Shown: one piece after another, positions 30,278 to 51,510 of the stretch
Position numbering within the stretch: position 1 is the first letter of the stretch
How the letters are laid out: every line of letters starts with the position of its first letter
Source: an uncultured Methanoregulaceae archaeon
GTDB lineage: Archaea > Halobacteriota > Methanomicrobia > Methanomicrobiales > Methanospirillaceae
NCBI GenBank assembly: GCA_963701095.1
Contig: OY969564.1
Span: 96,001 to 160,000 of the forward strand
Direction of reading: 5' to 3'
DNA: 64,000 nt
Made by a program: the position numbers and the translations under genes
Notes under the pieces: generated by a model
What the model saw: only the letters and a program-made list of their open reading frames with translations
The model's database searches: none
What the model was told of the DNA's origin: nothing

Positions 30278-30304
30278 TCTCACCTCTCATTTTTCAGGAT
30301 TCCA

Positions 30305-31074: not shown

Positions 31075-31077
31075 GCC

Positions 31078-31332: not shown

Positions 31333-31366
31333 CATAACCGCCGAACTCGAAGGGCTGGAAGAGTGC

Positions 31367-32130: not shown

Positions 32131-32143
32131 GGTACCACAAACC

Positions 32144-33312: not shown

Positions 33313-33668
33313 AACCGGCTGCATACGGGCTATGCGGTCTCTTCCCGGCTGAGCTCTGGAACCTAACGCCCCGTGATCTCCGGGTGATGATTGAGACTAA
33401 ACTCAAAATACGGACGGAACGGCAACGAGCTGACCTGTGGCACTTCGACCGGCTCTTTGCCGTCCAGACTGCAAGGCTGCTCAACATAGCTGGAAAAACG
33501 CTCAAAGAGGGCGTTGAAATCGACGCGGATTCCCTCTACGTGTTTAAGTGGGATATGCCAGCAACCGAAGAGCCGGAAGATGAATGCGATCCAGCGTCAC
33601 GGCTGGAAGAAATCAGGCAGAAAATGAACAAGTGGGTCAAGGCAACCGGAGGAACTCCTCGTGGGTGA
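33279..33668 (+). CDS. Tail assembly chaperone GT extension reached by -1 frameshift
   Basis: A AAA AAC at 33279-85; -1 frame reads GLFPAELWNLTPRDL. Confidence 0.75.
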   Translation, partial: KKLGRDWIKSIEPAAYGLCGLFPAELWNLTPRDLRVMIETKLKIRTERQRADLWHFDRLFAVQTARLLNIAGKTLKEGVEIDADSLYVFKWDMPATEEPEDECDPASRLEEIRQKMNKWVKATGGTPRG

Positions 33669-35373
33669 ACAAGTAGTTGGATCCTTGTGGGTCAAACTGG
33701 GTCTTGATGGATCCGGCCTGTCCGGTGGTGTTGCCAACGCAGCGGCATCATTCGATGTCATTACAATGGCAGCGAGGACTGCGACGAGGTTTGCCCAGCA
33801 GGGATTCGATGATACCGTCGGTGCGGCGATCTCGTATGCCGACCAGATGCAGCACGTTTCTGACGTAACCGGTATGAGCACCGACTCGGCACAGAAATGG
33901 AATGCTGCAAACATTGCTGTTGGTGGATCCCTGGACTCAATGCTTTCATCGCTCCAGATGGTGCAGGGAAAGATCGCTGACACCACAACCACCGGCAACA
34001 CCTACCGGAAGACCCTCGATAATCTTCACATCGCTTACAAAGACCAGAACGGGGATTACCTCGACGCCGACACCCTCCAGAAAAATATCCTTACGAGTTT
34101 AAGCAAGGTAACTGACGCCACTCAAAGGGACTCCGATGCCCGCCTTATCTACGGCCGGGGATGGGCGAGCAATGCAGAGCTTATCACCAATGCAACAAAG
34201 GCCCTCCAGGTCTATAACGCGACCCCGTCACCATTCTCTGACGACCAGATCACCGCTGCCCACAACATTGGTATCGAGCTTGACCAGTTCAACGCCAAAC
34301 TCTCCATCGCCCAGACCGAAGTCGGCATGGAACTGTTACCCTCAGTAAAAACGCTGGTTACCACATTTGGCGCTGCATTTAATGAGGACAGCCCGGTCAT
34401 CACCTTTTTCTCATGGCTTAACGGTGCGATAGAAGATTCTGTCGAAGGATTCGCAAAACTTGTCGGTGGTATTGAAGCCGGTACAGAGGCCATCAACGAT
34501 CTGGCAACCGGGAAAGGACTCTCCCAGTCTATGGCGGATTTCCAGTCCCAGGAAAATAAGACCAACGCCTATATCACCAACCTCCGGGGCCAGGCCGATA
34601 TCACTCAGGGAGAGATGGCCAATCCATCACCATCTTCACCAGTTGCCGGAAGTTCATCGCCAGATACGAGTGGAGACTCCGGAGGAAGTTCAGGCACTAA
34701 ATCAGGCAAAACGTCCACCGCTAAAACAGCAAGCACCACTACAAAAGCTGGCAGTGGATGGCACGGTGCTGCAATCGGAGATCCCGGTACGGCGATGAAC
34801 CAGTACATGATGGATTCATATGCCGATGGGATGTCATATTCCGAAGCCCTGAACGCATGGTCCGGGAACGCCCAGCCCACAGCATCCACCATGAAGCTGG
34901 CTCAGCAGTTCCAGGGAGATCAGACAAACCAGGGAATGAATGCAACGGTTGCATCGCTCGTTTCATCCACCGGGATCTCAACAGCAACCGCAATGCAGGC
35001 ATGGCAGCAAGGTGATGTCCTTCACGGAGACGCTGCCGCAACTTCAGATCCATCAAAGACCGCAGCTGCTTCAACTACGCTCGCAAAAGCCACCAGTACT
35101 GACCCGGTACTTACCGCTATTCAAAAGTGGTATAACGACTGGACGCCCCTGAACCAACTCGAGCAGTCCTCGTGGAAAACGACGACTGAAACCTATCAGA
35201 CAACCGTACTCAGCAACTGGACCACCTTGCTCGGTAATATGACGACTGTCTTAGCGACACTCAGCACAATTGCCGCGAAGACCGGCACAACTCCCGCCGG
35301 TTCGAGTGCAAACGCGGGTTCCACCACATTAGCAACTGCAGGACAGAGCACCTCCATTGGAGGGCTCTACTGA
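33661..35373 (+). CDS. Tape measure protein
   Basis: VGSLWVKLGLD N-terminus; Ala/Thr/Ser-rich; position. Confidence 0.85.
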   Translation: MGEQVVGSLWVKLGLDGSGLSGGVANAAASFDVITMAARTATRFAQQGFDDTVGAAISYADQMQHVSDVTGMSTDSAQKWNAANIAVGGSLDSMLSSLQMVQGKIADTTTTGNTYRKTLDNLHIAYKDQNGDYLDADTLQKNILTSLSKVTDATQRDSDARLIYGRGWASNAELITNATKALQVYNATPSPFSDDQITAAHNIGIELDQFNAKLSIAQTEVGMELLPSVKTLVTTFGAAFNEDSPVITFFSWLNGAIEDSVEGFAKLVGGIEAGTEAINDLATGKGLSQSMADFQSQENKTNAYITNLRGQADITQGEMANPSPSSPVAGSSSPDTSGDSGGSSGTKSGKTSTAKTASTTTKAGSGWHGAAIGDPGTAMNQYMMDSYADGMSYSEALNAWSGNAQPTASTMKLAQQFQGDQTNQGMNATVASLVSSTGISTATAMQAWQQGDVLHGDAAATSDPSKTAAASTTLAKATSTDPVLTAIQKWYNDWTPLNQLEQSSWKTTTETYQTTVLSNWTTLLGNMTTVLATLSTIAAKTGTTPAGSSANAGSTTLATAGQSTSIGGLY

Positions 35374-36254
35374 TGTATTTCACCTGGACACCATCGACCG
35401 GATCGCCGACCCTGACCTTTTCCGGCACCGCACCGGATTACCGGCTGCTCAAAGCATACGACGGGCTTGAATCGATGGCCAGCATCATCATGACGGCAAA
35501 ATCCCTCTATCTCGACGGGGAATCCATCATGGCTGCCCCGTGGCTGGACAACCGGTCGGTCACAATCCCGCTCATGATTATTTCGACTGATGGAACGCTG
35601 CCGACCCTGCAAGCCGAAGTCCTCGCCTTAGTCTCGACACTCAATCCCAAATATGGTCCCGGAGTACTGACCTTTTACAACGATTCCGGGGCGGCATATG
35701 CGCTCAACTGTGTCAATGATTCTGGTTCTCCGGTGATGGATACAAAAACAAAATACACGAACGAATGGCAATGCACCTTGAAATTCAAGGCGTACGATCC
35801 CACGTTCTACAACCCGGTTGCAAGCATCAATCCTTTCCAGACCTTCTATAACGGCTGGTCGTTCCCGTGGAGTTACCCGATGTCGTACGGTACGGCGAAC
35901 ACGACGCTTGGCTGTACCAACCACGGCAATACGCCTACATGGTTTACGGCGGTGGTTACCGGCCCTGTCTCAAACCCCGTGATTACCAATACTACTACAG
36001 GGGAATTCCTCCAGTCCAGCCAGACCCTCAACGCTGGTGATACGCTTACCATCAGCACGAGACCTCGGGCATGCACCGTGACCTATACACCGTCGGGGGG
36101 GAGTCCCATAAACGCCATGAAGACGATGTCGCTTAATAGCACCTTTTTCCTCCTCCCTCCGGGAACGACAAACGTCACGTATGCATCGAGCCTGAATATC
36201 CAGAGCGGCTCCAGTATGGAACTTACCTGGAATGACCGGTGGGCGGCGGTCTGA
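35373..36254 (+). CDS. Distal tail (Dit)-like protein
   Basis: FKAYDPTFY, N.GN.P, GP..NP.I.N.TTG, FF.L.PG. Confidence 0.8.
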   Translation: MYFTWTPSTGSPTLTFSGTAPDYRLLKAYDGLESMASIIMTAKSLYLDGESIMAAPWLDNRSVTIPLMIISTDGTLPTLQAEVLALVSTLNPKYGPGVLTFYNDSGAAYALNCVNDSGSPVMDTKTKYTNEWQCTLKFKAYDPTFYNPVASINPFQTFYNGWSFPWSYPMSYGTANTTLGCTNHGNTPTWFTAVVTGPVSNPVITNTTTGEFLQSSQTLNAGDTLTISTRPRACTVTYTPSGGSPINAMKTMSLNSTFFLLPPGTTNVTYASSLNIQSGSSMELTWNDRWAAV

Positions 36255-36255
36255 A

Positions 36256-38580
36256 ATGCCGGCTGCAAATCCTATGCCCCTCTGGGTCTTTGATCCAAAC
36301 CTCAACGCAATCGGCATCATTGACGGATACCAGTACCTTTCCTGGACCCGGGATTTTCGCGGTATCGGCACCATGAAATTAGAGGTTTCCCGGAAACTGG
36401 CGTTAGATAACCTCGGCAATTCGTTACTGCAACCGGGCAACTATTTCGGGTTCCTGCGAAACGGATGGTGGCGGGTCGCCCGTATCACGCAGGGAGATAT
36501 TTCGTGGAAATCAGACGATACCGCGAATACGGATCTCTGGACGGTCTCGTGTGCTGATGGAAAAGGGATCCTCAACCAGCGGTTGTGTCTTTACAACACC
36601 ACCACCGGCACAGGATACAATTCGCTGAACGCTGATGCTGAGACTGCTATCCGGACGCTGATCGCCGAAGAGATGATGACAAACGCCAATGCCGACCGCA
36701 ACATCCCCCAACTCGCGCTTGAAACTATTGACCAGACACGCGGCGGCAACATCACCATCGATGCCCGGTTCGAATACGTGATGGACAAAATCACCGAGAT
36801 TCTCCAGCAGAGCGGTGTAATGGGCATGGAAGTCCGGCTGAATGCCAGCGTCAGTCCGCCAACCCTTGTGCCGACAATGATTGTCGGTACTGACAGGACG
36901 GCATCAGTCTTCTTTACTCCGAAGTTCTCGAATGTCAAACAGTTAGAGTATACATTCGATATTTCAAAATCCCGGAACGCTGCGATGGTAGCCGGGAGCG
37001 GTACGGCGGCAGCCCGAACCCAGACCTGGGTCACGGTCGATAACTCGTTTTACCAGATGGGTAAACTCGGGTCGGCAACAATGGTCTGTTGTATGGCAGA
37101 TTGCGGTAATGGTATCCTGATTTTCGGTGGAAATGACGGGTTCATCTACCGCAGCACCAACAACGGCAGCACCTGGACGGCTATGCAGTCACTGGGGTAT
37201 CCGGTATTCTCGATGCTGTTTGTCAACAATATTGTTCTTGCAGGCACATCCGGCGCTGCCAAAATATTTGCCTCGTATGATCTTGGGCTGACGTGGAATT
37301 TACTTACCACCCTCACAGACGGATCGAACATGATATATTCCCTAGCCTGTGACGGCGCCCCTAATACTGCGACGACTACCACGACAACAACGGGCTCGAA
37401 CGCAACCCCGGGTACGATCAACAATATTACCTCAGTGGGGTGGACGGGGGCCGTGAACGTTTATGCCGGCACCGGGTCTACGGTGGGAACGGTCTGGATG
37501 GCTAATGTAAATGCGTTGAACTCGTGGACCAGCCTTGGATCGTGTGGTTCTGATAATTATGTCACCGCGATGCTCTATTCCGGGGTTGCCGGTGCAAATG
37601 GCGCGCCTACATGGTCGGTAAAGTACTCGCTCGACCTGACCCCGATCCCGTCGAATCCTCGCGGGTGTATGATCGCATCGGGATTTCCATCAGGAAACCT
37701 GTACTGGTTCGGCCAGAATCTTAACAGTATCACCACCGTCGCGATTGCACCGACAGAATCGATGTCGACCGCTAACTGGGGTCCCTGGATGTGGAACAAT
37801 TTCGGGAACCTGGCCGGGGTTAATGGCGTTATGTCGTTTCTCGCTTTGAGTAGCGGAGATATCCTGGCGGGATGTTATCCGGCAGGGAATATCATAAAAT
37901 GCCCTTACGGGAGGGGATCTGCACCTACTGCCATTAACATCAGTAATTGGTCACAGACTGGCCGACTCGGCACTGGCACTCTTTCTGTCCGCCGCATGAT
38001 TGACGGTAGTAACGGTTTAGTGTACGCTGGATCGAGCGACGGAACGAATGCAACGGTATTCCGAAGCCTCGATTATGGGAAGACCTGGACTTCGTTAGGT
38101 AACGTAGGATCTGAAACCGGTATTTACGCACTTGATCTTTCTCCCACTGGATACCTGATAATCGGGACGTATCCCGGCGGATTTATCTATCAATCGATGA
38201 ACGTGTCGCTGGAAAAGATTCCGACGGGTATCAACCGGTCGGAAATTCTGGTCGATGCTTCCGATGCCCAGAGTGCCGGTACGATCACGGCACAGGGTGC
38301 ACAGACGATTACCGATCTGGAGGAAGTGGATACCCTCACCTGTGTTATCGAGCCGGGGACGACGACGTTTGTGTATGGATCGGACTTTGATCTTGGCGAT
38401 ATGGTCACAGTCGTGTATCCTGGTATTGTGCAGAAAAGCGCCCGGATCCTGACAATCCAGGAAGAGTATTCCCTTTCTGCCGGATTCCAGGACACGATCA
38501 CACTTGGCAGTACCGGCACCGACCTCGGTTCTGTGATCAAGAAAGCGAACAAAGCGAACACCAAAGCTAAACGAAAGTGA
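36256..38580 (+). CDS. Baseplate hub/Tal-like (ReqiPepy6 gp37-like) protein with inserted BNR/Asp-box beta-propeller
   Basis: IGIIDGYQYLSW.R, VAG.G...R, Y..DFDLGD.VTV; S.(D/N).G.TW repeats. Confidence 0.75.
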   Translation: MPAANPMPLWVFDPNLNAIGIIDGYQYLSWTRDFRGIGTMKLEVSRKLALDNLGNSLLQPGNYFGFLRNGWWRVARITQGDISWKSDDTANTDLWTVSCADGKGILNQRLCLYNTTTGTGYNSLNADAETAIRTLIAEEMMTNANADRNIPQLALETIDQTRGGNITIDARFEYVMDKITEILQQSGVMGMEVRLNASVSPPTLVPTMIVGTDRTASVFFTPKFSNVKQLEYTFDISKSRNAAMVAGSGTAAARTQTWVTVDNSFYQMGKLGSATMVCCMADCGNGILIFGGNDGFIYRSTNNGSTWTAMQSLGYPVFSMLFVNNIVLAGTSGAAKIFASYDLGLTWNLLTTLTDGSNMIYSLACDGAPNTATTTTTTTGSNATPGTINNITSVGWTGAVNVYAGTGSTVGTVWMANVNALNSWTSLGSCGSDNYVTAMLYSGVAGANGAPTWSVKYSLDLTPIPSNPRGCMIASGFPSGNLYWFGQNLNSITTVAIAPTESMSTANWGPWMWNNFGNLAGVNGVMSFLALSSGDILAGCYPAGNIIKCPYGRGSAPTAINISNWSQTGRLGTGTLSVRRMIDGSNGLVYAGSSDGTNATVFRSLDYGKTWTSLGNVGSETGIYALDLSPTGYLIIGTYPGGFIYQSMNVSLEKIPTGINRSEILVDASDAQSAGTITAQGAQTITDLEEVDTLTCVIEPGTTTFVYGSDFDLGDMVTVVYPGIVQKSARILTIQEEYSLSAGFQDTITLGSTGTDLGSVIKKANKANTKAKRK

Positions 38581-38587
38581 GGACTCT

Positions 38588-39853
38588 ATGACGCTTACCT
38601 ACGGTTATTTTGCATCGGCATCCGGGGATATCCGGCAGTATATGCAGACCGACGACGCCAACCTGTTCCGCCAGTGGTGGAGCAACGGCATTATGAACAG
38701 TTTTGCGAACTCCCTGCAGGTAACAGCGCTTGCAAGCCCGAACATGTCTGTCTATGCCGGTATCGGTGGCTGTTTTATTGACGGGTACTGGATGTATAAC
38801 AATGCTGCATTGAACCTCGGTATTGCCGCGAACACTTCGGGCAACCCGAGGATCGACCGGATTATTGTGTCCATCGATGAAGTCAACGCCCGGGTCGTCA
38901 GTATCCAGGTTTTACAGGGATCTCCGGCTGCATCTCCGCTCCCCCCATCTCTCACCCAGAATTCAGGATCGACATACCAGTTGTCCCTTGCTCAGATCTC
39001 TGTGGCAAACGGCGCTAACCAGATCTTCCCGGCAAATATTACAGACGAACGTTGGACCCAGTACTGCGGGGTGATGGCGGCTACGATGGGGAAATTCTCC
39101 ATACAGACCGACGGATCCCTGAATGGCGGTGGCATGAATATTCACAATATCGCTGATCCGGTAAGCGCTCAAGATGCGGCGACGATGCATTATATCACCG
39201 GCCTTATGTCCTCAAGTACATTCCGCGTGAAAGTGTCCGTAATAGCATCAGGTTCCGTTTTTACGACACAATCAACGACGCAATACGTGGATATTCTCCT
39301 TGTTGGAGGATGCGGCGGTGGAGGTGGTGGTGGGGGCGCGATCACTACTTCCTGGGCAGGTGGAGCAGGTGGGGGCGGAGGGGCTGGCGGGACGAATTAT
39401 GCATGGGGTATCTCCGTCGCGGGAAATGCGACATACACGATTGCGGTCGGAGCCGCCGGTACCGCTGGTTCCGGGGGAGCTTACGGCGGATCCGGTTATG
39501 GCAGCGGTGGAGGTGGCGGTTCAGGCGGATCTGGCGGAAATACCTCAATCACCGTAGGTGGTACGACATATATTGCGTACGGTGGCGGTGGTGGAAACGG
39601 CGGAATTGGTGGGCATTTCTACGCTACCGGTGGCAGCGGGAATGGTATTGCCGGCGGTGCCGGTTCCGGTGGCAGTATCGCCAATGGATTTGGCATGCTC
39701 GGTAACTCGGGAAATGGCACGTCGCCCGGTGCCGGTCAGTTCAGTGCATCCCAAGTGGGAGGAACGGGAGGAAATGGTGGGGGCGGTGGGGGCGCTGGCG
39801 GTGCCGGGATGGCGGGGACTGCTGGAATGATGATTATCTGGGAATGGTCGTAA
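38588..39853 (+). CDS. Tail fibre/upper baseplate protein with glycine-rich C-terminal domain
   Basis: NPRIDRI, ITDER, NIADPVSAQDAAT, GGGGGG repeats. Confidence 0.75.
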   Translation: MTLTYGYFASASGDIRQYMQTDDANLFRQWWSNGIMNSFANSLQVTALASPNMSVYAGIGGCFIDGYWMYNNAALNLGIAANTSGNPRIDRIIVSIDEVNARVVSIQVLQGSPAASPLPPSLTQNSGSTYQLSLAQISVANGANQIFPANITDERWTQYCGVMAATMGKFSIQTDGSLNGGGMNIHNIADPVSAQDAATMHYITGLMSSSTFRVKVSVIASGSVFTTQSTTQYVDILLVGGCGGGGGGGGAITTSWAGGAGGGGGAGGTNYAWGISVAGNATYTIAVGAAGTAGSGGAYGGSGYGSGGGGGSGGSGGNTSITVGGTTYIAYGGGGGNGGIGGHFYATGGSGNGIAGGAGSGGSIANGFGMLGNSGNGTSPGAGQFSASQVGGTGGNGGGGGGAGGAGMAGTAGMMIIWEWS

Positions 39854-39979: not shown

Positions 39980-40502
39980 ATGGGTTTCTTCGGCAAAATC
40001 GGGGAAGTTTTCAATAAAATTGACTATCATACCTCAAATGATCCTGAAATAGTTGGTAAAAGATTTGAAGATCATGTTGAAAGTCTCTTTTCAAAAAAAT
40101 ACTTCAAAATTCTTGAAAAGACACACTCATTCAAAACAAACGCAGAAAGATATGTCGAGAGTAGTAAAAATCCTGATTTTATCTTTGAATATGGCCCTAC
40201 AAAAGAGCAATTTGCTATTGAATGTAAATTTCGGACAAAATTGAATAGTCAAGGGCAATTAGAATGGTCTTACCCTGCCCAATTAAAACGTTATCAGCAA
40301 TTCGCAGCTCAATCTCGTATACCGGTCTATATTGTCATTGGTTTGGAAGAAGATCCTGAAGATGATGAGGAACCAGAGGGTTACATGTTCAATATACCAT
40401 TGAATGAAGCTGAAATATCCTGCTCTCTATCCGAGTGTATTTGCCAAATATGAAAGACCATTGGATAAACCGTTTTTCTGGAAGAATGGAAAATTGTATT
40501 GA
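39980..40502 (+). CDS. PD-(D/E)XK nuclease-like protein (frameshift near 40410)
   Basis: G..FE, NPD, FAIECKFR, QLKRYQ; alternative frame finishes YERPLDKPFFWKNGKLY*. Confidence 0.7.
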
Positions 40503-40544
40503 AATGCGCAGAGTGGAAATGTTGGATATTTCTGATTCAAAATT

Positions 40545-40748
40545 TCAATGTCCTATGAACTTTAAGATATTGCCAACCTCATTGTGAACATTCTGATCCC
40601 AAGATTGGTTATTTTGAGAGATTGAAGATTGGGGATTATTTGCTTGTTGATTTTCCGTGCTATCACATCCTGCTATTGAAACTGAAAGCAGAATAAGAAT
40701 AATCATTATTAAAATTACCATTATCTTCATAAATTGGGTTATTAACAT
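40545..40748 (-). CDS. Small lipoprotein
   Basis: Hydrophobic signal peptide with SIAGC lipobox. Confidence 0.5.
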   Translation of the reverse strand: MLITQFMKIMVILIMIILILLSVSIAGCDSTENQQANNPQSSISQNNQSWDQNVHNEVGNILKFIGH

Positions 40749-40877
40749 TTGAAGATAAAAGATTTTAGCCTTTGATTATACATTTTTCGTAAAATCAATA
40801 AAAAACAATAGTTTTCTTTTGTAGGGCTTTTTAACCTTATATTCTAACTTAACTAGTAACACAGGAGGAGGCAGTTT

Positions 40878-40967
40878 ATGACTGATTCTGGATTTATTTT
40901 AATATGTGCAGGTGTTGGAATTGCTCTGGTAATTATCGCTATTTGGATTTTATTGCAGCGTCGATAA
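40878..40967 (+). CDS. 29-aa single-TM microprotein (not in the ORF track)
   Basis: MTDSGFILICAGVGIALVIIAIWILLQRR*; AGGAGG RBS. Confidence 0.5.
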   Translation: MTDSGFILICAGVGIALVIIAIWILLQRR

Positions 40968-41064
40968 ATATCAGTCCCGTTGCATCTGTCCGCAGTCCGG
41001 GCACAGCCACTTTCACACCATCAACTCTCTTCCATTTATCAATCTCCATTCATGATCAGGTATC

Positions 41065-41232
41065 ATGCAATCATTCTCGTGCAAAAGACACAACAAATTC
41101 CCTGATTGTTTGAAACCCGATCATAATTTGGCCCTGGTTCGGTGTATAGGAAAAGACTGCGAGGAATGGAGAGACGGCCCTATTTATTGTCCCCATCTTG
41201 TGAGGGTGGAAAATGGAAGAAGGGTGAATTAA
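41065..41232 (+). CDS. 55-aa Cys-rich microprotein (not in the ORF track)
   Basis: MQSFSCKRHNKFPDCLKPDHNLALVRCIGKDCEEWRDGPIYCPHL... Confidence 0.45.
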   Translation: MQSFSCKRHNKFPDCLKPDHNLALVRCIGKDCEEWRDGPIYCPHLVRVENGRRVN

Positions 41233-41250
41233 CTAATCTTCATATCCGCG

Positions 41251-41889
41251 TTACAGCGGAATATCCCGAGGTAACACATCTATTTTTTTGATATATGGTT
41301 CCGTTTTTACGATAACGTGTATCCCTGCCAGATCAGGATTCGATTCGATTTGATACTTACTACCGTAATATAACCAGAACTTCAGGTCAACCCCAGATTT
41401 TTTTAATTTATTAACCGATCTTTTCCGGTAAGAGGAATCTATTTCAATCACGGCGATTTTCTGTTCCTTATAACGATAAATGACATCAATACCCCCGCCC
41501 CTGCTTTTCCCGTTCTTATCGATACTCAATTTTTTTACTCCAAATTCTTTTTTACCCTCCATATGGAGTTCCCCGGCAGCATTCTTAACCAAATCCTGAA
41601 TTTTATTGTGAAATGCCAGATCATTTTTCATACCATGTTCTTTTCTTATCTGGACAGCTTCATCGAAGCATCTAATCAACACTTTCTCAATATCATGCCA
41701 AGTGAAACTCGGATAGGGAAGGTGTCTATTGTCAGCCAGATCCATATCAAAGGGTTCTGAAGGTGACATAATTGTTCTTTTTAAGAGGAACGAACATAAA
41801 ACATGTACCGTGCGGCGTGAAAATGAAAAATCGCGATCGTACAGCGCGTCTATAAATACATTACGGATTACAATAATGCATCGCAACAA
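41251..41889 (-). CDS. PD-(D/E)XK-like nuclease (start probably ~41769)
   Basis: EF......GGIDV.....AVIEIDSS.R..SV.KL. Confidence 0.55.
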   Translation of the reverse strand: MLRCIIVIRNVFIDALYDRDFSFSRRTVHVLCSFLLKRTIMSPSEPFDMDLADNRHLPYPSFTWHDIEKVLIRCFDEAVQIRKEHGMKNDLAFHNKIQDLVKNAAGELHMEGKKEFGVKKLSIDKNGKSRGGGIDVIYRYKEQKIAVIEIDSSYRKRSVNKLKKSGVDLKFWLYYGSKYQIESNPDLAGIHVIVKTEPYIKKIDVLPRDIPL

Positions 41890-41974
41890 TTCTTTTTTAA
41901 ATTGCGCGAAGAATCATCGTTTGAACAATACATCAACATCGAAATTTATTAATAATGTAATACATATTGTATAC

Positions 41975-42050
41975 ATAGTGAGTAAGTCCTTCCCGAAAAG
42001 GATGATGCCACCTTGAGGTGGATGGGACGAAGTAGGGAAGGGGTCACTAT
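41975..42050 (-). ncRNA. Structured RNA directly 3' of the DUF3800 gene
   Basis: Nested inverted repeats ATAGTGA/TCACTAT, CCTTCCC/GGGAAGG, CCACC/GGTGG; GC-rich patch in AT-rich DNA. Confidence 0.6.
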
Positions 42051-42706
42051 CGTTTCTGAATCCCCCTGAAAAAATCAAGTTCGATTCGTATCTTTTCATC
42101 GATAATGTTGAAATACGTATCATCATTCTCGCGATAATAGTAATGCAGTGCACCTGCGATAAAATCGACCGCTTGTATACAAGGTTCGCATGCTGAATCT
42201 GTATGGCTGATTTGGATAACCGGCATCTGAAAATCACTTGTCGATTTTTTCTCCATTTCATCCATCGTTTTGAATACAACATATTGATTAAAGGCCTCTC
42301 GTTGGATGCCATTTAACGATTTATCAACAGTGATCTCTAAATCCCTCTCCTGACTATACCTTTGAACAATTTTTGAAATCATTAGCCCAGTCAAATAATT
42401 ATAGATAATCTGATGTTGTGTCCGTAAATGTGGACGAACCTGATTTTTACGAAGGACACAATAACAAACGTCTACGTTTGATGCTGCAATACACAAGAGA
42501 ATGCGTCTTTTGATTTCAGATCCCGAATTATTGAATTTAAATTCTGGCAGTTCATGATATTTCTTTTTAAGTTTGTTTTTTCTTAATTTAGCAAAGCAAC
42601 GATTGATTGCAAGCGGATCATGCACGATTAGTCCGGCTAGAATAAAGTACTTGGATGACTTCCCTGTGAAGCCCATATCCCCAGACTCGTCGATGTATAT
42701 CTTCAC
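42047..42706 (-). CDS. DUF3800-family protein (RNase H-like)
   Basis: IYIDESGD, EFKF, IQAVDFIAG. Confidence 0.88.
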   Translation of the reverse strand: MKIYIDESGDMGFTGKSSKYFILAGLIVHDPLAINRCFAKLRKNKLKKKYHELPEFKFNNSGSEIKRRILLCIAASNVDVCYCVLRKNQVRPHLRTQHQIIYNYLTGLMISKIVQRYSQERDLEITVDKSLNGIQREAFNQYVVFKTMDEMEKKSTSDFQMPVIQISHTDSACEPCIQAVDFIAGALHYYYRENDDTYFNIIDEKIRIELDFFRGIQKR

Positions 42707-42939
42707 TCGTATAATATGTAGATATCATCTACTATTAGGGGTTACGGTTTTTTTGAACTAAAAAAAACGATTATTAATCCGGCAGCATCATCTTACAGTC
42801 CGGGCAATACTGCCACGGGATCGCGCATGGTTTCTGCGCGTGTTGCAAAGATTATTTCTATTTCCAAAACCTATCAAATAACACGGAAAATTATAATTAC
42901 CCTCCATTTTCAAAATAGGGAATAATTTGAGGAAGTTAC

Positions 42940-43333
42940 ATGAATGGGCTAGCCCAATGCGAAACTCAGATACATCACATTCCTGCTCTTGAATACGATA
43001 GCAATTCTTCATCAGGGTATTTTGTAATGTTACCTGAAGATTACCCGGTTTATATTGCCTATTATGGTATTGCAGGATCGGACCATCTGGATGAACAGTC
43101 AACACTTTTAAAAATACTCATAATGAGTACAGTTGCACCTTATATGTGGGTACCATCTCCACAAGGAATGCAGGGACGCTTGATGCATTGATGGCAATGT
43201 TGCACCTTATATGTGGGTACCATCTCCACAACCACCACCTCAAATCTCTCTTTCTCTCACTCCATTTGGAGAAATCTTTTTAATTGGTTTCGGCTTGTTA
43301 GTGTTGCTTATTCTTGTCAGACGAAAGGGTTGA
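42940..43333 (+). pseudogene. C-terminal fragment of a membrane-anchored protein interrupted by a 67-bp repeat-spacer unit
   Basis: Removing one unit gives ...VAPYMWVPSPQPPPQISLSLTPFGEIFLIGFGLLVLLILVRRKG*. Confidence 0.6.
43132..43231 (+). repeat. Two perfect 33-bp direct repeats around a 34-bp unique insert (CRISPR-like unit)
   Basis: GTTGCACCTTATATGTGGGTACCATCTCCACAA at 43132-64 and 43199-231. Confidence 0.9.
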
Positions 43334-43599
43334 TTATGTGTTTCCGATTCTATAGTGTTTAGGGTTGAAATATAATTCTTCCGATGTGAAAAATCCGAAA
43401 CCTTCATAGACGCAACATTGCTTTTCTGTTTATGCAAATAAAAGGAAAATATGGATGGCTCGTATCCTCCTTCTTTTAATTCAGATTAACAGATGAATTT
43501 GGTAAATATTGTTTACTTCGAATCCCACTCGTTATATTGGGTGGGATATAGACTATTGATTGCAAATTATTATCGTTTTGAATATTGTATAGCGAGTAT

Positions 43600-45802
43600 A
43601 TGATGCCATCCCCTTATTATGCCCATTCTACTGAGAAACAGGATAAGTCGGATTGGCAGCAATTGAAAACTCATTTAACGAATGTCGCTACCCTCACTCG
43701 GAATTTTGCGGACGACTTCAGTGCCGGTGACTTTGCATATGCCAGTGGGATCCTTCATGATATCGGAAAATACTCCCGCGATTTCCAGAAGCGTCTTGAA
43801 GGAGAAAAGATCTCCGTTGACCACTCAACAGCCGGTGCAAGAGAAGCAACCCGGTTATTCAAAGATGATCAGTATGCCGCGGGGCTGATATTTGCCTACC
43901 TTGTTGCCGGTCACCATGGGGGTCTGCTCAATTACGGGAGCGCTGAAAGTGGACTCTGCGAACGGTTGCAGAAAGAAAAAATCCCGGATTATTCTGTATA
44001 CCACACGGAGGTTTCGATTGACACGCAGGCAATCGGGCCTTTCAGGTTACGCCCCTCCCCGCATAAAACCGGCTTCTGTGTCTCATTCTTTACGCGGATG
44101 CTTTACTCCTGCCTTGTGGATGCAGATTCACTCGACACAGAAAAATTCTGTTTTCCTGAAAAATCTTCATCACGTGGGAACTACAAATCGTTTGAGATCC
44201 TGAATAAGAAATTCGAAACTCACATGCAGAAAATTAATTCCGGTGCGGAAGATTCACTCATCAACCGCGAGCGGAAAAATATTTTCGAGCAGTGCGTTCA
44301 GGCCGGCTCGTTTCCTCCCGGAATTTTCAGCCTGACAGTCCCGACCGGTGGAGGGAAGACGCTCTCCTCAATGGCATTTGCGCTTGAACACGTTAAGAAA
44401 AATAATCTCAAAAGGATCTTTTACGTCATCCCGTATACCAGTATTATCGAACAGAATGCCGATGTTTTCCGTGACATTTTCGGGTGGCAGAATGTGCTGG
44501 AGCATCATTGCAATTTTGATCCGGCAACGGTTGATACCGGAGACTTGGATACGGGAAAAGAATCTCTCCGGCTTGCAACCGAGAACTGGGATATGCCAAT
44601 CGTTGTCACGACCAATGTCCAGTTCTTTGATTCGCTCTTCTCTAACAAGAGATCCCGCTGCCGGAAACTGCATAACCTTGCAAAGAGCGTAATCATTCTT
44701 GATGAGGCACAGATGCTCCCAACCGGGTACCTGCTTCCCTGTCTTGCCGCATTGTCGGAACTTGTACGCAACTTTGGCGCAACGGTCGTGATTTGTACCG
44801 CAACACAACCGCGATTGGGTGATCTGCTTGACGAGAGGGTCCGGCCCAGAGATCATGCAGTCCCCGGATCAATTGTATGAAACCTTCCAGCGGGTACGGG
44901 TGACGAATCTTGGCCCGCTCAGCGATGCGGAACTTTCTGCCCGGCTGAAAGATCACCGGCAGATCCTGTGTATCGTGAATACCCGGAATCATGCAAAGAA
45001 ATTGTACAATGCGATCAAAGAGTCCGAAAATTGCTATCATCTCAGTGCCCGGATGTGCCCGGTCCATCGCAGGAAAAAGATCGCAGAGATCAAGAATCGG
45101 CTTCGCGAGGGGGAAGACTGCCGGGTCATCTCAACGCAGCTGATCGAAGCCGGTGTCGATATCGATTTCCCCGTTGTGTACCGGACAATGACCGGTATCG
45201 ATTCGGTTGCACAGGCTGCCGGCAGGTGCAACCGTGAAGGGAAATTGCCTGAGAAAGGGGAGGTCTACATTTTCAAATCAACGGAATCTTACGGAAAGGC
45301 GACTTCATGGCAGAGTCTCGTTGCAGAAATTGGCGAGATGACTCTTGCAGGATCGAATGACCCGCTCTCGCTCCCGACCGTAGCGGATTACTTCCGGCGT
45401 TTATATCACTACAAGGGAGATGACGGACTGGACGAGAAAAAAATCCTGCGCCAGCTCGAAGAGCGGTCTGGTGAACTTGCATTCCCGTTTGAGGATATCG
45501 CGGATAAATTTCAGATAATCGAGGAGGGGACTAAAGACCTGATCATACCCTATGGCAAACACGCCACGGAAACGATTGCAAAATTACGCGCAGCAGAATT
45601 TCCCTGGAAATTCGTACGGGAACTCCAGGGGTATTCAGTCAGTATCTATCCCAATGAATTCCGGAATATGGAACGGATGAATCTGATTGAAACGATTGGC
45701 GACCGGTTTTATGTATTGCGATCCTGTGAGGATTATTCCGATGAAACAGGATTGAAACTCCGGCAGTATACCGGTTACGATGGATCATTGTTGATTACGT
45801 AA
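43600..45802 (+). CDS. cas3: Cas3 helicase-nuclease (frameshift near 44845)
   Basis: HD domain LHDIGK, GHHGG, DAD; PTGGGKT, DEAQ, TAT, QAAGRCNR. Confidence 0.93.
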
Positions 45803-45806
45803 GGAG

Positions 45807-46475
45807 GTGGTGAATATCGGATTTGGTATTAAACTCAAAGTCTGGGGCGACTACGCCTGCTTCACGCGCCCCGAGATGAAAGTCGAGCGGGTCAGTTACG
45901 ATGTGATGACCCCTTCAGCTGCCCGGGGGATTCTTGAAGCAATTTACTGGAAGCCGGCGATAACCTGGGAGATTGACCGGATTCATGTGATGAAGCCGGT
46001 GAAATTTGACAACATCAGAAGGAACGAAGTGCTGGGAAAGATTCCGCTTGCCCAAGTGAAAAGTGCTTTTTCAGGGAAAGAGGCGGTTCTCTTCAAGGAT
46101 TCAAACGATGATCGGGTTCAGCGTGCATCAATGGTTCTCCGCGATGTCGAGTATTACATTGAAGCCCACTTCAACATGACCGACAAAAAAGGACCCGATG
46201 ATACCATTGAGAAGCATTACAACATTGCCCTCCGCAGGATGCGGAAAGGTCAGTGTTTCCACCACCCGTATTTCGGGTGCCGCGAGTTCCCCGTTCAGTT
46301 CGAGTTCATTGAGGGAGAGATCCCCCTGTCGGATCTGAAAGGGAAAAAGGATCTCGGGCTCATGCTCTGGGACATTAATTTTGCCGACAACATGAACCCG
46401 GTTTTCTTCCGGGCGGAGATGAACGATGGCATGATCGATGTGCAGAAGTGCCTCAGGGGAGGTGTTCACTCGTGA
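45807..46475 (+). CDS. cas5: Cas5 (type I-C, Cas5d)
   Basis: GDYACFTRPEMKVERVSYDVMTPSAARG, PYFGCREF. Confidence 0.95.
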   Translation: MVNIGFGIKLKVWGDYACFTRPEMKVERVSYDVMTPSAARGILEAIYWKPAITWEIDRIHVMKPVKFDNIRRNEVLGKIPLAQVKSAFSGKEAVLFKDSNDDRVQRASMVLRDVEYYIEAHFNMTDKKGPDDTIEKHYNIALRRMRKGQCFHHPYFGCREFPVQFEFIEGEIPLSDLKGKKDLGLMLWDINFADNMNPVFFRAEMNDGMIDVQKCLRGGVHS

Positions 46476-48364
46476 TTGTCGAGTCCCTTGTCCGGTATTA
46501 CGATATCCTGGCAGCGGATGAGACAGTTAAGATCTCCAAACCGGGTTACAGCCAAGCAAATGTTTCCTTTGCGCTGGTTATCTCAAAGGATGGAGAACTT
46601 ACAAATATTGTCGATCTCCGTACTGATGGAAAGAAAAAACTTCCAAAGGTAATGACAGTACCCTTGCAAAGGAGTCGCTCTGGAAAGAATCCCCCACCAC
46701 GTTTCCTCTGTGACAAATGCGAATACATCTTTGGAATTGAGAGCTTGAAACCTGATGAATTCAGGAAAAAAATGGATGCATCGTCGCATGAGATCGAGAT
46801 TCTTGACCAAACTCAAAAATCTATGATTGTGGTTTCGCCACGATCTCGTGAATATTTCAGTAAGTTTCGAACACTCCATCATTCTTTGCTGGACCATCAG
46901 ACGGATCCTGAAGTTCAGATATTCCTTAAATTTATGGATGGATGGAAACCGGAATTATCACTACAGCATCCAAAAATTGCCGAATATGAGGAAGAAATTT
47001 TGGCGGGTGTATTCTTTGTCTTCGATATTGGAGGAAAATACATTCATCAGAACCCGGTTGTCCGACAGATATGGGAATCTCGCAATTCTCTATTAGACAG
47101 TACAGACTCAGTGGAATGTTCCCAGTGCCTTGTCACAGGTAAACATGAACCCATTGCCCGGACTCATCAGAAAATTAAAGGTGTCTATAATCCACAAGGT
47201 CAGATTTCCGAAATGTCTCTTGTTAGTTTTAATGATCCCGCTTTTGAATCCTATGGGAAAGATCAGAGTTACAACGCCCCAATCAGCGAATCGGCGATGT
47301 TCAAGTACACAACAGCACTGAATTATCTTCTTGAACGGGAGAGCAAGAACCGGATCCAGATCGGTAACACGACAACAGTCTTCTGGGCCGAAACCACGAA
47401 GAAAAACTGCGGGAATCTCGCCCGGTTCTTTATCGATCCTGTTGAGACCCCCGAAGAACCCGGTGAAACCAAAAGCGAAGTAAAAAAACAGGATCTCCAG
47501 ACCCGCCAGCTGGTCAACGATATCCTCCAGAAAGTCCGTACCGGGCAGCATCTGGAAGAAAAAGATCTTGGCGTGGACCCGGACAAAACAAAATTCTACA
47601 TTCTTGGTCTGGCACCGAACAATGCCCGGCTCGCTGTCCGTTTCTGGCATGAGGACAGTTTCGGGAATTTTATCGCCCGTGTTGCACGTCATCATCTCGA
47701 CATGGAGATCGAACGGGATGATCGCGGGCCACAATTTATCTCCGTGTACTGGCTCCTGAAACAGACCGTCCCCCAGAATTCCAGTGACAATGCATCATCG
47801 CCCCTTCTCGGGGGGCTCCTGATGCGTTCGATTCTTGAGAACACACTTTACCCGGTGCCGATGTACAACGCGATCCTGAACCGGGTGAAAGTCGAGCGAT
47901 CGATTAATTATGCCCGGGCCGGCTTCATCAAGGCCTGCCTGATCCGTCTTGCACGAACGAGAGGAAAACATGAAGAGGATATGATTACCGTGAGTCTGAA
48001 CAAAGAGAGCACAAGTGTACCGTACCGCCTCGGAAGATTGTTTGCGGTGCTGGAGAAAGCGCAGAGCGATACGAACAAGGAACTGAAGAGCACGATCACG
48101 AGCAAGTACTTCAGCAGTGCATCGACAACGCCGTCCGTTGTGTTCCCGGTCCTGCTGAAACTGGCCCAGCATCACATTGCCAAATCGGACTGGGGCTTCA
48201 AATCGAACCAGTGGATCGTGGAAGTGCTTGATGGCGTTGATAAATTCCCGGCGTACCTGAACCAGGAAGAGCAGGGGATGTTCATGCTCGGGTACTATCA
48301 CCAGAAAAAGGCGTTTTTCAAGAAGAAAGAGAACAGCGAGGAAAAGAAGGAGGAAGATCAATGA
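46472..48364 (+). CDS. cas8c: Cas8c/Csd1 large subunit
   Basis: CLVTG, SLVSFN..AFESYG, LAPNNARLAVRF, YRLGRLFAVLE. Confidence 0.95.
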   Translation: MIVESLVRYYDILAADETVKISKPGYSQANVSFALVISKDGELTNIVDLRTDGKKKLPKVMTVPLQRSRSGKNPPPRFLCDKCEYIFGIESLKPDEFRKKMDASSHEIEILDQTQKSMIVVSPRSREYFSKFRTLHHSLLDHQTDPEVQIFLKFMDGWKPELSLQHPKIAEYEEEILAGVFFVFDIGGKYIHQNPVVRQIWESRNSLLDSTDSVECSQCLVTGKHEPIARTHQKIKGVYNPQGQISEMSLVSFNDPAFESYGKDQSYNAPISESAMFKYTTALNYLLERESKNRIQIGNTTTVFWAETTKKNCGNLARFFIDPVETPEEPGETKSEVKKQDLQTRQLVNDILQKVRTGQHLEEKDLGVDPDKTKFYILGLAPNNARLAVRFWHEDSFGNFIARVARHHLDMEIERDDRGPQFISVYWLLKQTVPQNSSDNASSPLLGGLLMRSILENTLYPVPMYNAILNRVKVERSINYARAGFIKACLIRLARTRGKHEEDMITVSLNKESTSVPYRLGRLFAVLEKAQSDTNKELKSTITSKYFSSASTTPSVVFPVLLKLAQHHIAKSDWGFKSNQWIVEVLDGVDKFPAYLNQEEQGMFMLGYYHQKKAFFKKKENSEEKKEEDQ

Positions 48365-49212
48365 GCGAACCAATCAAGAACCGGTACGAATTTGTATTGT
48401 TATTCGATGTCGAGAACGGGAACCCGAACGGCGATCCCGATATGGGGAACATGCCCCGGGTCGATCCACAGACCGGCTACGGGATCGTGACCGATGTCTG
48501 CCTCAAGCGGAAGATCCGTGATTATGTTGACATGGTAAAAGAAGGGAAAGAGGGCTACGACATCTATGTGAAAGATGGTGTTGTGCTCAACGAACAGCAC
48601 ACAAAAGCATATGCTGCCCTCAAGAGGAAGCCTGACTCGAAGAAGCCCAAGGATGAAGAACTTACAAAATTCATGTGCCAGAACTTTTTCGATATCCGTG
48701 CTTTTGGTGCGGTCATGACAACTGATGTAAACTGCGGTCAGGTTCGCGGCCCTGTTCAGCTAAATTTTGCCCGAAGCCAGGACCCGATCTTCCAGCAGGA
48801 AGTAACAATTACAAGGCAGGCCGTGGCAAATGCGAAGGATGCCGAGAAAGGCCAGACAATGGGCAAGAAACAGATTGTCCCCTACGGCCTGTACCGTGTT
48901 GAGGGTTATGTATCTGCAAATCTCGCAAAGAAAACTACCGGCTTCTCCGAAGACGATCTCGCCCTGCTCTGGGAAAGTCTGGTCAACATGTTCGAGCACG
49001 ACCATTCTGCATCCCGGGGGAAACTCTCCGCAAGGAAACTGATCGTCTTCAAGCATGACAGCGAATTCGGGTGCTGCCAGTCTCACATCCTGTTCGACAA
49101 AGTGAAGATCGAGACGATCCCAAAAGATCTCCCGCCTCGCTCATTTGGGGATTACAAAGTCACCGTAGACAAGAACGTACCCAAAGGAGTAGAAATCATC
49201 GAAAAGTTATGA
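48361..49212 (+). CDS. cas7: Cas7/Csd2
   Basis: NGNPNGDPD..N.PR, FFDIRAFGAV, GQVRGPVQ. Confidence 0.96.
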   Translation: MSEPIKNRYEFVLLFDVENGNPNGDPDMGNMPRVDPQTGYGIVTDVCLKRKIRDYVDMVKEGKEGYDIYVKDGVVLNEQHTKAYAALKRKPDSKKPKDEELTKFMCQNFFDIRAFGAVMTTDVNCGQVRGPVQLNFARSQDPIFQQEVTITRQAVANAKDAEKGQTMGKKQIVPYGLYRVEGYVSANLAKKTTGFSEDDLALLWESLVNMFEHDHSASRGKLSARKLIVFKHDSEFGCCQSHILFDKVKIETIPKDLPPRSFGDYKVTVDKNVPKGVEIIEKL

Positions 49213-49895
49213 GCGGACTTCCCTACACCGATGACGAGCTGCTCTCGTTATCCGGTATCCAGCATTTTTGTTTCTGCAAGCGGCAGTGGGCGCTAATCCA
49301 TGTCGAGCAGCAGTGGCAGGAAAATCTCCGCACGCAGGAAGGGCGGTTCGTTCATGAACGGGTCGATGATCCATTCTTCAACGAGTCTCGGGGCGATATC
49401 GTCATCTCACGGGCATTTCCCTTGGTCTCGTATACGCTGGGACTGACCGGTATTGCGGATGTGATCGAGAATACCCGGTCGGATGCGGGAATCTCAATTC
49501 CGGATCATGAAGGCCTCTGGCTGATGAAACCCGTAGAGTACAAACGGGGAAAGCCGAAGATCGATGAGCGCGACGAGGTCCAGCTCTGTGCACAGGTAAT
49601 GTGTCTTGAGGAGATGCTCGGCATTCAGATTGACTCCGCCGATTTCTATTACAACGAAATCCGCAGGAGACAACATATTGCCATCACGGACGATCTGCGC
49701 AGCACGGTACGATCGCTGGCCGATGAAATGCATACGGTTTTCCGGAACGGGATTACGCCGGAAGCGGAAGCCGGGAAGAACTGTGCCCTCTGTTCTCTTG
49801 TCGATATATGTGTCCCGAAACTGACAAAGAAGAAAAGTCCGGTACGGAAATACATCGGGAGACATATCCGGGAGGCGTGCGCGCTTGACCAGTGA
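49209..49895 (+). CDS. cas4: Cas4
   Basis: LSGIQHF.FCKRQWALIH, PVEYKRG, QLCAQ, C..CS...C. Confidence 0.94.
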   Translation: MSGLPYTDDELLSLSGIQHFCFCKRQWALIHVEQQWQENLRTQEGRFVHERVDDPFFNESRGDIVISRAFPLVSYTLGLTGIADVIENTRSDAGISIPDHEGLWLMKPVEYKRGKPKIDERDEVQLCAQVMCLEEMLGIQIDSADFYYNEIRRRQHIAITDDLRSTVRSLADEMHTVFRNGITPEAEAGKNCALCSLVDICVPKLTKKKSPVRKYIGRHIREACALDQ

Positions 49896-49946
49896 GTACC
49901 AGCCGCAGGTGGCCGGAATCCGATACCATCAACGAGAGAGGATGAA

Positions 49947-50978
49947 ATGAGAAAATTGCTCAACACTCTGTATGTCACGACACCCGACTCCTTCCTGCAC
50001 CGTGACGGCGAGAATGTTATCGTGAAGGTCGGTAGCGATGAGCGTTTCAGGATTCCCATTCATAACATCGAAGGGATTGTCTGTTTTGGCTACATGGGAG
50101 CGAGCCCCCAGCTGATGCAGTTGTGCACGGACAATAATGTCGGGCTTTCGTTTCTCACACCCTATGGAAAATTTATGGGTCGGGTGAATGGTCGCATACG
50201 GGGAAATGTTCTGCTCAGGCGCACCCAGTACCGTATTGCTGACGACTCAGGGGCCTCACTGGATATCGCCAGGTGTTTCATTACAGCAAAGATCGTCAAC
50301 TGCCGGACAGTTCTTGGGAGAAGCATCCGGGATCATGGCGATACAATCCGGTGCGAAACCATCAGGAATGCGGATAATCTCCTGATCGAGAACCTGTCGA
50401 AGATTGAGGAGTGTCCCAACGCCGATGCGTTGCGGGGCCTTGAAGGGAACTGCGCAAAATTCTATTTCGATGTGATGGACGAACTGATCCTCAAACAGAA
50501 AGATGCGTTCTTTGTCCGCGAAAGAAACCGGCGCCCTCCCCGAGATAATATGAATGCCCTTCTCTCATTTCTCTATACGCTCCTTGCCCACGATGTGGAA
50601 TCAGCACTGGAGACAGTCGGCCTCGATCCGTATGTCGGGTTCTTCCATACTGACCGGCCCGGACGGGCAAGCCTTGCGCTTGACATGATGGAGGAATTCC
50701 GGCCGTTTATTGCGGACCGTCTTGCGCTGAGCATGGTGAATCTCCAGCAGGTATGCAGGGAGGATTTCCTGCACAAAGAAGGTGGGGGGATCATCCTGAC
50801 CGACAAGGGACGCAAAGCCGTGCTGGGTGCGTGGCAGAAGAGGAAGCAGGACGAGATCACGCATCCGTACCTCAACGAGAAGATTGAAATCGGTCTTTTG
50901 CCGTATATCCAAGCACTGCTGATGGCCCGGTTTCTGCGCGGGGATATCGATGGCTACCCTCCATTCTTCATGAACTGA
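49947..50978 (+). CDS. cas1: Cas1 (type I-C)
   Basis: MRKLLNTLYVT, GNVLLRR.QY, NALLSF.Y, LALDMMEEFR. Confidence 0.97.
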   Translation: MRKLLNTLYVTTPDSFLHRDGENVIVKVGSDERFRIPIHNIEGIVCFGYMGASPQLMQLCTDNNVGLSFLTPYGKFMGRVNGRIRGNVLLRRTQYRIADDSGASLDIARCFITAKIVNCRTVLGRSIRDHGDTIRCETIRNADNLLIENLSKIEECPNADALRGLEGNCAKFYFDVMDELILKQKDAFFVRERNRRPPRDNMNALLSFLYTLLAHDVESALETVGLDPYVGFFHTDRPGRASLALDMMEEFRPFIADRLALSMVNLQQVCREDFLHKEGGGIILTDKGRKAVLGAWQKRKQDEITHPYLNEKIEIGLLPYIQALLMARFLRGDIDGYPPFFMN

Positions 50979-50988
50979 GGTATCGATA

Positions 50989-51279
50989 ATGATGGTTCTT
51001 GTCACCTACGATGTAAATACGGAAACTCCGGAAGGTCGGCGAAGGCTCCGACAGGTTGCGAAAGAGTGCGTGAACTATGGGCAGCGGGTACAGAATTCCG
51101 TCTTCGAATGCCTTGTGGATCCCACCCAGTTTGCAAAGCTTAAACATTCCTTGAACGGGATTATGGATAAGGACCGGGACAGTATCCGGTTTTATTATCT
51201 GGGATCTAACTGGCAGCACCGGGTAGAACATCTGGGAAACAAGATCGGTTATAATCCTGAAGGGTTACTGGTAACCTGA
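50989..51279 (+). CDS. cas2: Cas2
   Basis: VLVTYDV, GQRVQNSVFEC, DSIRFY.LG. Confidence 0.97.
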   Translation: MMVLVTYDVNTETPEGRRRLRQVAKECVNYGQRVQNSVFECLVDPTQFAKLKHSLNGIMDKDRDSIRFYYLGSNWQHRVEHLGNKIGYNPEGLLVT

Positions 51280-51510
51280 TGACTGCGAACTGGGAGCTGC
51301 CATAGTCATCCCTGAAGGTTCGCGGAGAATTTTCGAATCTGTTATTTAATACTTTTTGGTGATTTCCCGAATTTATCGCGAATAATTCGGATTGAGAAGA
51401 GGCGAAACGTCCGGAAAATCCTGTGAAAGATCCAAAATTTTGAACCCGGTTTCTTGTTTAAGAAATGATTATCTGTTTATTCCACCATAAGAATGGTTAG
51501 CTAATTTGCA
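51280..51510 (+). promoter_or_regulatory. CRISPR leader
   Basis: AT-rich, between cas2 and the first repeat; GCGAAC...GTTCGC inverted motif at 51285-51323. Confidence 0.75.

Follow-up and report, generated by a model that had tools for sequence, protein, structure and literature searches.

A spacer-sized insert between duplicated coding DNA upstream of a type I-C cas operon in an uncultured Methanoregulaceae archaeon: a probable scar of off-target CRISPR integration

The 3' end of a surface-protein gene just upstream of a type I-C CRISPR-Cas locus in an uncultured Methanoregulaceae archaeon is interrupted by a spacer-sized insert between two copies of a repeat-length target (43132-43231 of a 64,000-nucleotide stretch, positions 96,001 to 160,000 of contig OY969564.1 in assembly GCA_963701095.1, hereafter the window). 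We consider this unit to be the scar of an off-target integration by the CRISPR integrase Cas1-Cas2, a reading to which we give a probability of about 0.7. An earlier note on this DNA, made from its sequence alone, had proposed such an event, and the proposal is now supported both by alleles that lack the unit and by an insert length and a period that fit the resident I-C system. The small- and large-subunit rRNA matches of the genome are archaeal and full-length, identifying it as an archaeal genome.

The unit consists of two identical 33-nt direct repeats on the + strand, copy 1 at 43132-43164, coding for VAPYMWVPSPQ, and copy 2 at 43199-43231, with 34 unique nucleotides between them (43165-43198), giving a period of 67 nt. 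The copies cannot be extended at either end, as the preceding bases differ (A and T) and so do the following ones (G and C), and a search of the window at up to three mismatches returns exactly two occurrences of the 33-mer, while two matches were seen in 0 of 100 dinucleotide-preserving shuffles. The insert is single in the 2.63-Mb genome, likewise at up to three mismatches. The perfect 33-bp duplication around a unique 34-bp insert reported in the earlier note is thereby confirmed, as is its distance from cas3, put at about 370 bp and measured here as 369 nt from the end of copy 2 to the cas3 ATG (43600), on the same strand. The G+C content of the insert, 0.50, is close to the 0.51 averaged by the resident spacers and unlike that of the gene fragment around it (0.38). 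Its ends, GGAATG and GGCAAT, are not inverted repeats, and its length would be 35 nt if a base now counted with the apparent duplication, on one flank, were part of it.

The insert puts a TGA stop (43189-43191) into frame, closing an 83-residue truncated reading frame (42940-43191, + strand) of which the first eight codons are unrelated to the family. The displaced C-terminal coding part (43232-43333, + strand), comprising a proline-rich linker, a membrane helix and RRKG followed by a stop, now lies out of frame; homologues end alike. In silico deletion of one unit joins …MSTVAPYMWVPSPQ to PPPQISLSLTPFGEIFLIGFGLLVLLILVRRKG and the stop. A genome-wide scan outside the CRISPR array, for repeats of at least 24 nt at a period of 50-90 nt, returned six repeat-insert-repeat structures in 2.63 Mb, two of them perfect and the rest imperfect coding repeats.

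Natural alleles with and without the unit establish that it is an insertion. A scan of metagenome contigs with a 75-residue piece of the interrupted protein found four loci (L026-L029). Contig L026 carries a single 33-mer within an intact, full-length frame of 249 residues, whose product ends in …VAPYMWVPSPQPPPQISLSLTPFGEIFLIGFGLLVLLILVRRKG, exactly the continuous frame with a membrane helix, RRKG and stop that had been predicted from removal of the unit. Contig L027 carries the full-length gene with the identical 33-34-33 unit, its frame stopping in the insert at 224 residues, and across their 1.9-kb overlap the two contigs show no difference besides the 67 nt. Logan contigs of four public runs (X1, X4, X5 and X9) were also placed on 42600-43800, run bins without cover not being used as evidence. 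In X4, X5 and X9, which come from three studies, a contig joins 43131 directly to 43199, skipping exactly 67 nt, at depths of 23, 41 and 5.4, respectively. Run X1, which has the filled form and may be the source sample, contains a 94-nt unitig across copy 1, insert and copy 2 (depth 11.4), and its 33-mer unitig, at a depth of 22, is covered about twice as deeply as the flanks (about 9), in keeping with two copies. As L026 may derive from a sample of one of these runs, we count the empty form as found in three independent studies, not four.

Uninterrupted homologues with a single 33-mer are therefore represented by L026 and by contigs of three runs. Homologues do not carry the 34-bp segment natively, the 34-mer being found in none of the 107 other genomes of the genus at up to three mismatches, and the unit is supported by independent assemblies (L027 and the X1 unitigs). 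Homologues in the genus share with the empty allele a C-terminal end made up of linker, membrane helix and basic residues. The unit is a true insertion and not the remnant of a deletion, the direction of the event not being in doubt, because only the empty form gives the family's intact frame and the filled form has a frameshift and premature stop.

The type I-C locus that follows, all on the + strand, begins with cas3 (43600-45802; NCBIfam, Pfam and sequence), coding for HD nuclease and helicase in two overlapping frames (43585-44880 and 44819-45802). The effector genes cas5d, cas8c (Csd1) and cas7 lie at 45807-49212 (Pfam E-values of 4e-46, 8e-174 and 1e-107), and the adaptation module of cas4, cas1 and cas2 at 49071-51279, its frames all open (Pfam; Cas1 of I-C type by PADLOC, 4.6e-155). 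Beyond a leader of 231 nt (51280-51510) stands the only CRISPR array of the genome (51511-55503), with 60 perfect 32-nt repeats and a terminal one that is degenerate. Of the 59 spacers that separate the perfect repeats, 37 have 34 nt, 12 have 33 nt, 7 have 35 nt and 3 have 36 nt, and the repeat-spacer units measure 65-68 nt, seven of the 59 having 67 nt. The 34-nt insert is thus of the modal resident length, in a spacer range of 33-36 nt, and the 67-nt period lies within the range of resident units.

We propose that a Cas1-Cas2 integrase, most probably the type I-C Cas4-Cas1-Cas2 encoded just downstream, acted in a single adaptation event, in which the two 3' ends of a 34-35-nt prespacer would have been joined to opposite strands of ordinary DNA at the 3' end of the surface-protein gene. 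The two attacks would have fallen 32-33 bp apart, and gap repair would then have duplicated the 33-bp target. The resident I-C module is the likeliest enzyme, with a chance that we put at about one half. As the I-C hairpin and the handle needed by Cas5d are both missing from its repeat, the unit is probably inert, a scar and not a new array. Transposons, casposons and repair processes are not known to us to leave a unique insert of 34 nt within a 33-nt duplication. Insertion sequences and miniature inverted-repeat transposable elements have terminal inverted repeats and leave a short duplication, typically of 2-15 bp; an element of either kind was ruled out here by the 34-nt length of the insert, by its ends and by the 33-nt duplication.

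In canonical type I-C adaptation, as in Bacillus halodurans, Cas4-Cas1-Cas2 acts at the leader-repeat junction. The event proposed here would resemble it in its two predicted staggered transesterifications one repeat-length apart followed by gap repair, in the modal spacer length, and in the leader-side nick context, since the junction context CA/GT at the target is also that of the leader-repeat junction. It differs in that the target has no leader and no I-C repeat, and in that the product lies outside the array, without the Cas5d hairpin and handle.

Several observations weigh against this reading, the first of which is the length of the duplication, 33 nt for a resident repeat of 32 nt. 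The match in period to the resident array claimed in the earlier note thus holds for the 67-nt total and for the modal insert, and not for the duplication. The one-base excess may have arisen because a base at the spacer end equals the flank by chance, in which case a 32-nt duplication would surround a 35-nt spacer, a length held by 7 of 59 resident spacers; it may also reflect a ruler slip in the integrase. In the type I-B system of Haloarcula hispanica, according to Wang et al. 2016 (PMC4872114), altered spacing of mid-repeat motifs gives duplications of 29-33 bp instead of 30, the size depending on the position of a GTGGG motif, and a deviation of 1 nt therefore has precedent. A GGGTAC-anchored ruler of that kind would nevertheless, in our own reading, predict 34 nt rather than the 33 observed, as in the target the motif shows a 2-nt shift with respect to the start of the repeat.

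The target also resembles the resident repeat poorly as a whole. Globally, the 33-mer ranks in the top 12% of random genomic 33-mers by its similarity to the repeat (P 0.12), and the 40 nt upstream of the unit are unlike the leader, matching it at 13 of 40 positions. The first 8 nt of the 33-mer do match the repeat at 6 of 8 positions (P 0.0034, for a comparison picked after seeing the data), and the target has a core, TGTGGGTAC, shared with the I-C repeat, where it reads TGCGGGTAC. The resemblance previously claimed is statistically weak.

Neither is there a protospacer in the collections searched by which a foreign origin or a TTC protospacer-adjacent motif (PAM) could be judged. The exact 34-mer has 0 matches in viral_contigs and 0 in genome_contigs, and blastn against phages and plasmids gave chance-level partial matches only (E at least 0.9). 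A protospacer with a 5' TTC-type PAM, by which the insert was to have been traced, was found in none of the viral, genome, genus, phage and plasmid collections. As a control, the whole resident array is likewise without a match in the phage collection, which simply does not cover the mobile elements of this host; the resident spacers have no match to the genome itself. A 16-nt exact self-match of the insert at G000:C1:1394361, with 22 of 34 positions identical overall and no adjoining TTC, was judged to be chance.

A further point concerns cas3, whose change of frame at 44819-44880, near short G and C runs, makes the state of the system or of its assembly doubtful. The change could be either a real frameshift or an assembly error, and carries no information on adaptation.

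The observation that bears most on our confidence is the second perfect unit of the genome scan, which lies outside the window at G000:C1:2537069-2537177 (L042:2070-2178) and consists of a perfect 38-nt duplication around a unique 33-nt insert, with a period of 71 nt. It sits in the 3' end of a tyrosine-recombinase gene, which is also split. In a paralogue (G000:C1:316633-317142) and in the orthologue of genome G118 (L044) the sequence is present once and leads into the same …KEKRG stop, so this second scar, too, is an insertion; no close relative of the recombinase gene carrying the scar was found in viral_contigs. Its 38-nt duplication is not explained by an I-C integrase, and its period is outside the I-C unit range. 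It lies inside that of type I-B, the related genomes with an I-B cassette having 37-nt repeats, 34-39-nt spacers and 71-76-nt units, and the lengths of the second scar fit I-B (37 + 34). This genome has no I-B genes, however, so that the enzyme assigned to either scar is tentative; it is mainly because of the second scar that our confidence is not higher.

A TG[C/T]GG(A)GTAC core is common to the targets of both scars and the repeat's TGCGGGTAC, with local alignment P values of 0.12 for the target in the window and 0.016 for the second. We do not claim the core as a ruler anchor, because its distance to the duplication ends differs between the two targets. Neither target resembles the I-B repeat (P 0.23-0.99). 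The genome also encodes a solo Cas1 of 314 residues (G000:C1:1216757-1217575, - strand; L032:10668-11612), which stands alone, without cas2 or an array in its vicinity. Its identity to the I-C Cas1 and to the I-B Cas1 alike is about 24%, which ties it to neither scar.

The DNA around the scar in the window has a mosaic history. A 486-bp fragment (42964-43449, + strand), made up of the 3' part of the surface-protein gene and 116 nt downstream of it and delimited by BLAST with L026 and L027 and by alignment, is 100% identical to the L027-type locus of a distant species, the flanks on both sides being unrelated to that locus; contigs of runs X4, X5 and X9 have loose ends at 42964 and 43449. In L027 and the three empty-form runs the DNA past 43449 runs into a cas8b gene (PADLOC 7.2e-17), which is present at 100% identity in G116, the genome of a distant species of the genus whose PolB region is 73% identical to the window's. 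An identity of 100% in the fragment despite 73% in PolB indicates that the fragment was acquired horizontally and recently, and 43449/43450 is a junction at which I-B and I-C cassettes alternate. Among the genomes of the genus, I-B cas8b was found in 7 of 108, and 10 have I-C cas3 matches of gene length.

Given this history, the scar could be the work of another CRISPR integrase, or have formed in another host, and have arrived ready-made with the 486-bp fragment. We regard this as unlikely. It accounts for the identity of the fragment to the locus of so distant a species, and L027, in which the filled allele stands between that species' own I-B-type flanks beside cas8b, speaks for it and against integration by the resident module; the different lengths of the second scar (38 + 33) and the presence of a solo cas1 in the genome also speak for it. 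The only other system seen at the locus is I-B, however, and its 37-nt repeats and 71-76-nt units do not fit the 33 + 34 unit. The lack of an I-C cas3 match in G116, the representative of the I-B species, tells against both explanations. L027 itself may be a real strain, or, as it differs from L026 by the 67 nt only, it may be an assembly chimera of two co-occurring genomes, which is conceivable because the genomes share identical sequence (168 and 251 bases) on either side of the unit. Integration may have taken place in this genome, in the I-B species, or in an earlier host whose I-C cassette lay at the same junction.

The junction stretch itself (43419-43489) recurs at G000:C1:672372-672400, at three places in genome G101 and in diverged contigs of X4 and X9, and may be a recombination or regulatory element. 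In a comparison of L028 with G000:C1:135604-139028, L028 has the window-type truncated gene start and is without some 2.3 kb (window about 40231-42528), and the region upstream of the scar therefore also varies between strains.

It is quite improbable that the scar has no CRISPR origin at all, as it would if filler DNA had been captured at a staggered break, or if an unknown recombinase or a template switch had been at work, the lengths then being coincidental. The failure to find a protospacer or PAM in the searched collections and the weak similarity of site and repeat would suit such an origin. The 38-nt duplication of the second scar, which fits no resident system, could moreover mean that one length-variable non-CRISPR process acted at both sites. 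No other process is known to us, however, that leaves target duplications of 30-40 nt around unique inserts the size of a spacer. At 34 and 33 nt the two inserts have lengths inside the spacer ranges measured here, the periods of 67 and 71 nt lie inside the ranges of unit length for the two CRISPR types found at this locus in the genus, and the insert in the window has neither terminal inverted repeats nor a template elsewhere in the genome.

We think it very unlikely that the unit is a functional mini-array, either as the source of an RNA with a regulatory or guard role, of the Cas-regulating or CreA kind, or as the beginning of a second array that works. In mini-arrays of the CreR and CreTA type the repeats are degenerate versions of the one that belongs to the system, and the spacer partly matches a promoter. 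The unit is like them in being a repeat-spacer-repeat structure near a cas operon, 369 nt upstream of cas3 on the same strand, and the genome has only one other perfect unit, but its repeats exactly reproduce a piece of coding DNA that occurs once in the empty allele, and there is no promoter-type spacer match. Nothing in 42001-44000 beyond the unit matches the insert over 9 nt or more, the unit has no Rfam match, and no promoter-like site was found in 42700-43131, in a scan for bacterial sigma-70 promoters that has little weight for an archaeon. The 33-mer is predicted to form a hairpin of -5.8 kcal/mol, against -10.8 kcal/mol for the I-C repeat, and at a different position, and the GATTGAAAT handle is missing from it, as the earlier note had stated. 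The unit as a whole is without the I-C hairpin, the 3' handle …GGATTGAAAT and the leader that mark a functional type I-C array. A GGGTTGAAAT at 43362-43371 was considered as a repeat handle and rejected, being no better than chance (P about 0.7). These results give no sign that the unit grew into, or works as, a new array.

Direct-repeat recombination readily deletes intervening DNA, and the genome, assembled as one contig and estimated to be 86% complete, contains several split genes, but the notion that the filled form is ancestral, or that the unit is an assembly artefact, is largely refuted by the anchored frame of the empty form and by the independent assemblies described above, and a deletion origin would in addition need the 33-mer to be present twice before any selection could act.

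The scar, then, sits in what is left of a surface-protein gene. Relatives of the first 75 residues of the family portion occur in 24 of 108 genomes of the genus, its own included (six-frame search), the best foreign relative having 52% identity. They are of some 250-290 residues. A signal-like helix at the N-terminus is followed by a conserved core, …IPxLEY.SN.TSGYF…YIAYYG…, and then by a linker that varies, a membrane helix at the C-terminus and a short tail of basic residues. The window therefore keeps only about the last third of such a gene. Pfam and NCBIfam returned no family for the interrupted gene, and the 83-residue frame had zero matches in a word-indexed protein search. The suggestion that integration inactivated a gene does not hold for this genome, because only a 5'-truncated fragment is present, and no working gene was inactivated here.

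Other features of the locus may be noted. In the resident array, at about 53888-54449, two spacers have the same sequence, one of 34 nt and one of 35 nt, and neighbouring spacers resemble diverged versions of each other (a tandem repeat of period 198); this pattern suggests repeated sampling of related targets and a one-base variation in spacer trimming. A few kilobases upstream of the cas locus lies a provirus-like block (29294-39850) of tailed-virus-like character, with a Mu-like major head protein, siphovirus tail proteins (Dit and Gp37-like) and a tail-fibre-like protein. A DUF3800-X RNA (Rfam RF02984, 44.5 bits) was matched at 42000-42049 (+ strand), the match beginning at the start of the search, and adjoins a DUF3800 gene (42047-42706, - strand) upstream of the unit. 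A dispersed element of about 50 nt occurs at 42773-42825 and again at about 20237-20277 and 21104-21131; it is kept at 75-88% identity in several genomes of the genus, between unrelated flanks, has no Rfam match, and reaches a very high summed depth of 380 in one metagenome-run bin.

Off-target spacer integration is known mainly from E. coli. Nivala, Shipman and Church (2018, Nat Microbiol 3:310) reportedly found that non-canonical Cas1-Cas2 integration gives rise to 'neo-CRISPR' loci. Like those of E. coli, the scar described here is a spacer-sized insert between two copies of repeat-length ordinary DNA, outside any array. Unlike the type I-E events in E. coli, it is natural, belongs to an uncultured archaeon and would involve a type I-C module with Cas4; it is known as empty and filled alleles from wild populations, and its duplication is one base over the repeat length. 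According to four sources that cite Nivala et al. 2018 (10.1101/148544, PMC7054753, PMC6698737, PMC9456107), such off-target events were detected in E. coli cells that overproduce Cas1-Cas2 and are able to give rise to new arrays, and the first of these (10.1101/148544), again citing Nivala et al., calls the evidence for natural off-target events in two other species 'circumstantial'. On our reading the scar belongs to a known phenomenon. Its value is that the allele occurs in nature both empty and filled, and that the DNA around it is a mosaic with horizontal exchange.

A wider picture can be drawn, which we hold to be unlikely as it stands: off-target integration would be biased to the immediate flank of the cas operon, the scar would show the first step in seeding a second array, and it would have travelled, or arisen, on an interspecies fragment that moves with an exchangeable cas cassette junction. 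One of the two perfect scars does lie 369 nt from cas3 and 218 nt from where the I-B haplotype parts from the I-C one, and by our own post hoc arithmetic the chance that one of two uniformly placed scars falls within 500 nt of the locus is about 0.001. If bias and travel of this kind were true, such scars could serve as natural marks of CRISPR cassette transfer.

The same DNA is thus available with and without the unit from wild populations of peat, wetland and soil, and the exact empty target is now in hand for an archaeal type I-C system that contains Cas4. The two forms make a substrate pair for how integrases choose and measure targets that are not CRISPR, and for how new arrays might begin. 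The neighbourhood of the cas operon is a mosaic, in which alternative I-B and I-C cassettes meet at one junction beside a fragment common to distant species. If the L027 form is real, the scar also points to a cost of adaptation for the host, in which a surface protein loses its membrane anchor.

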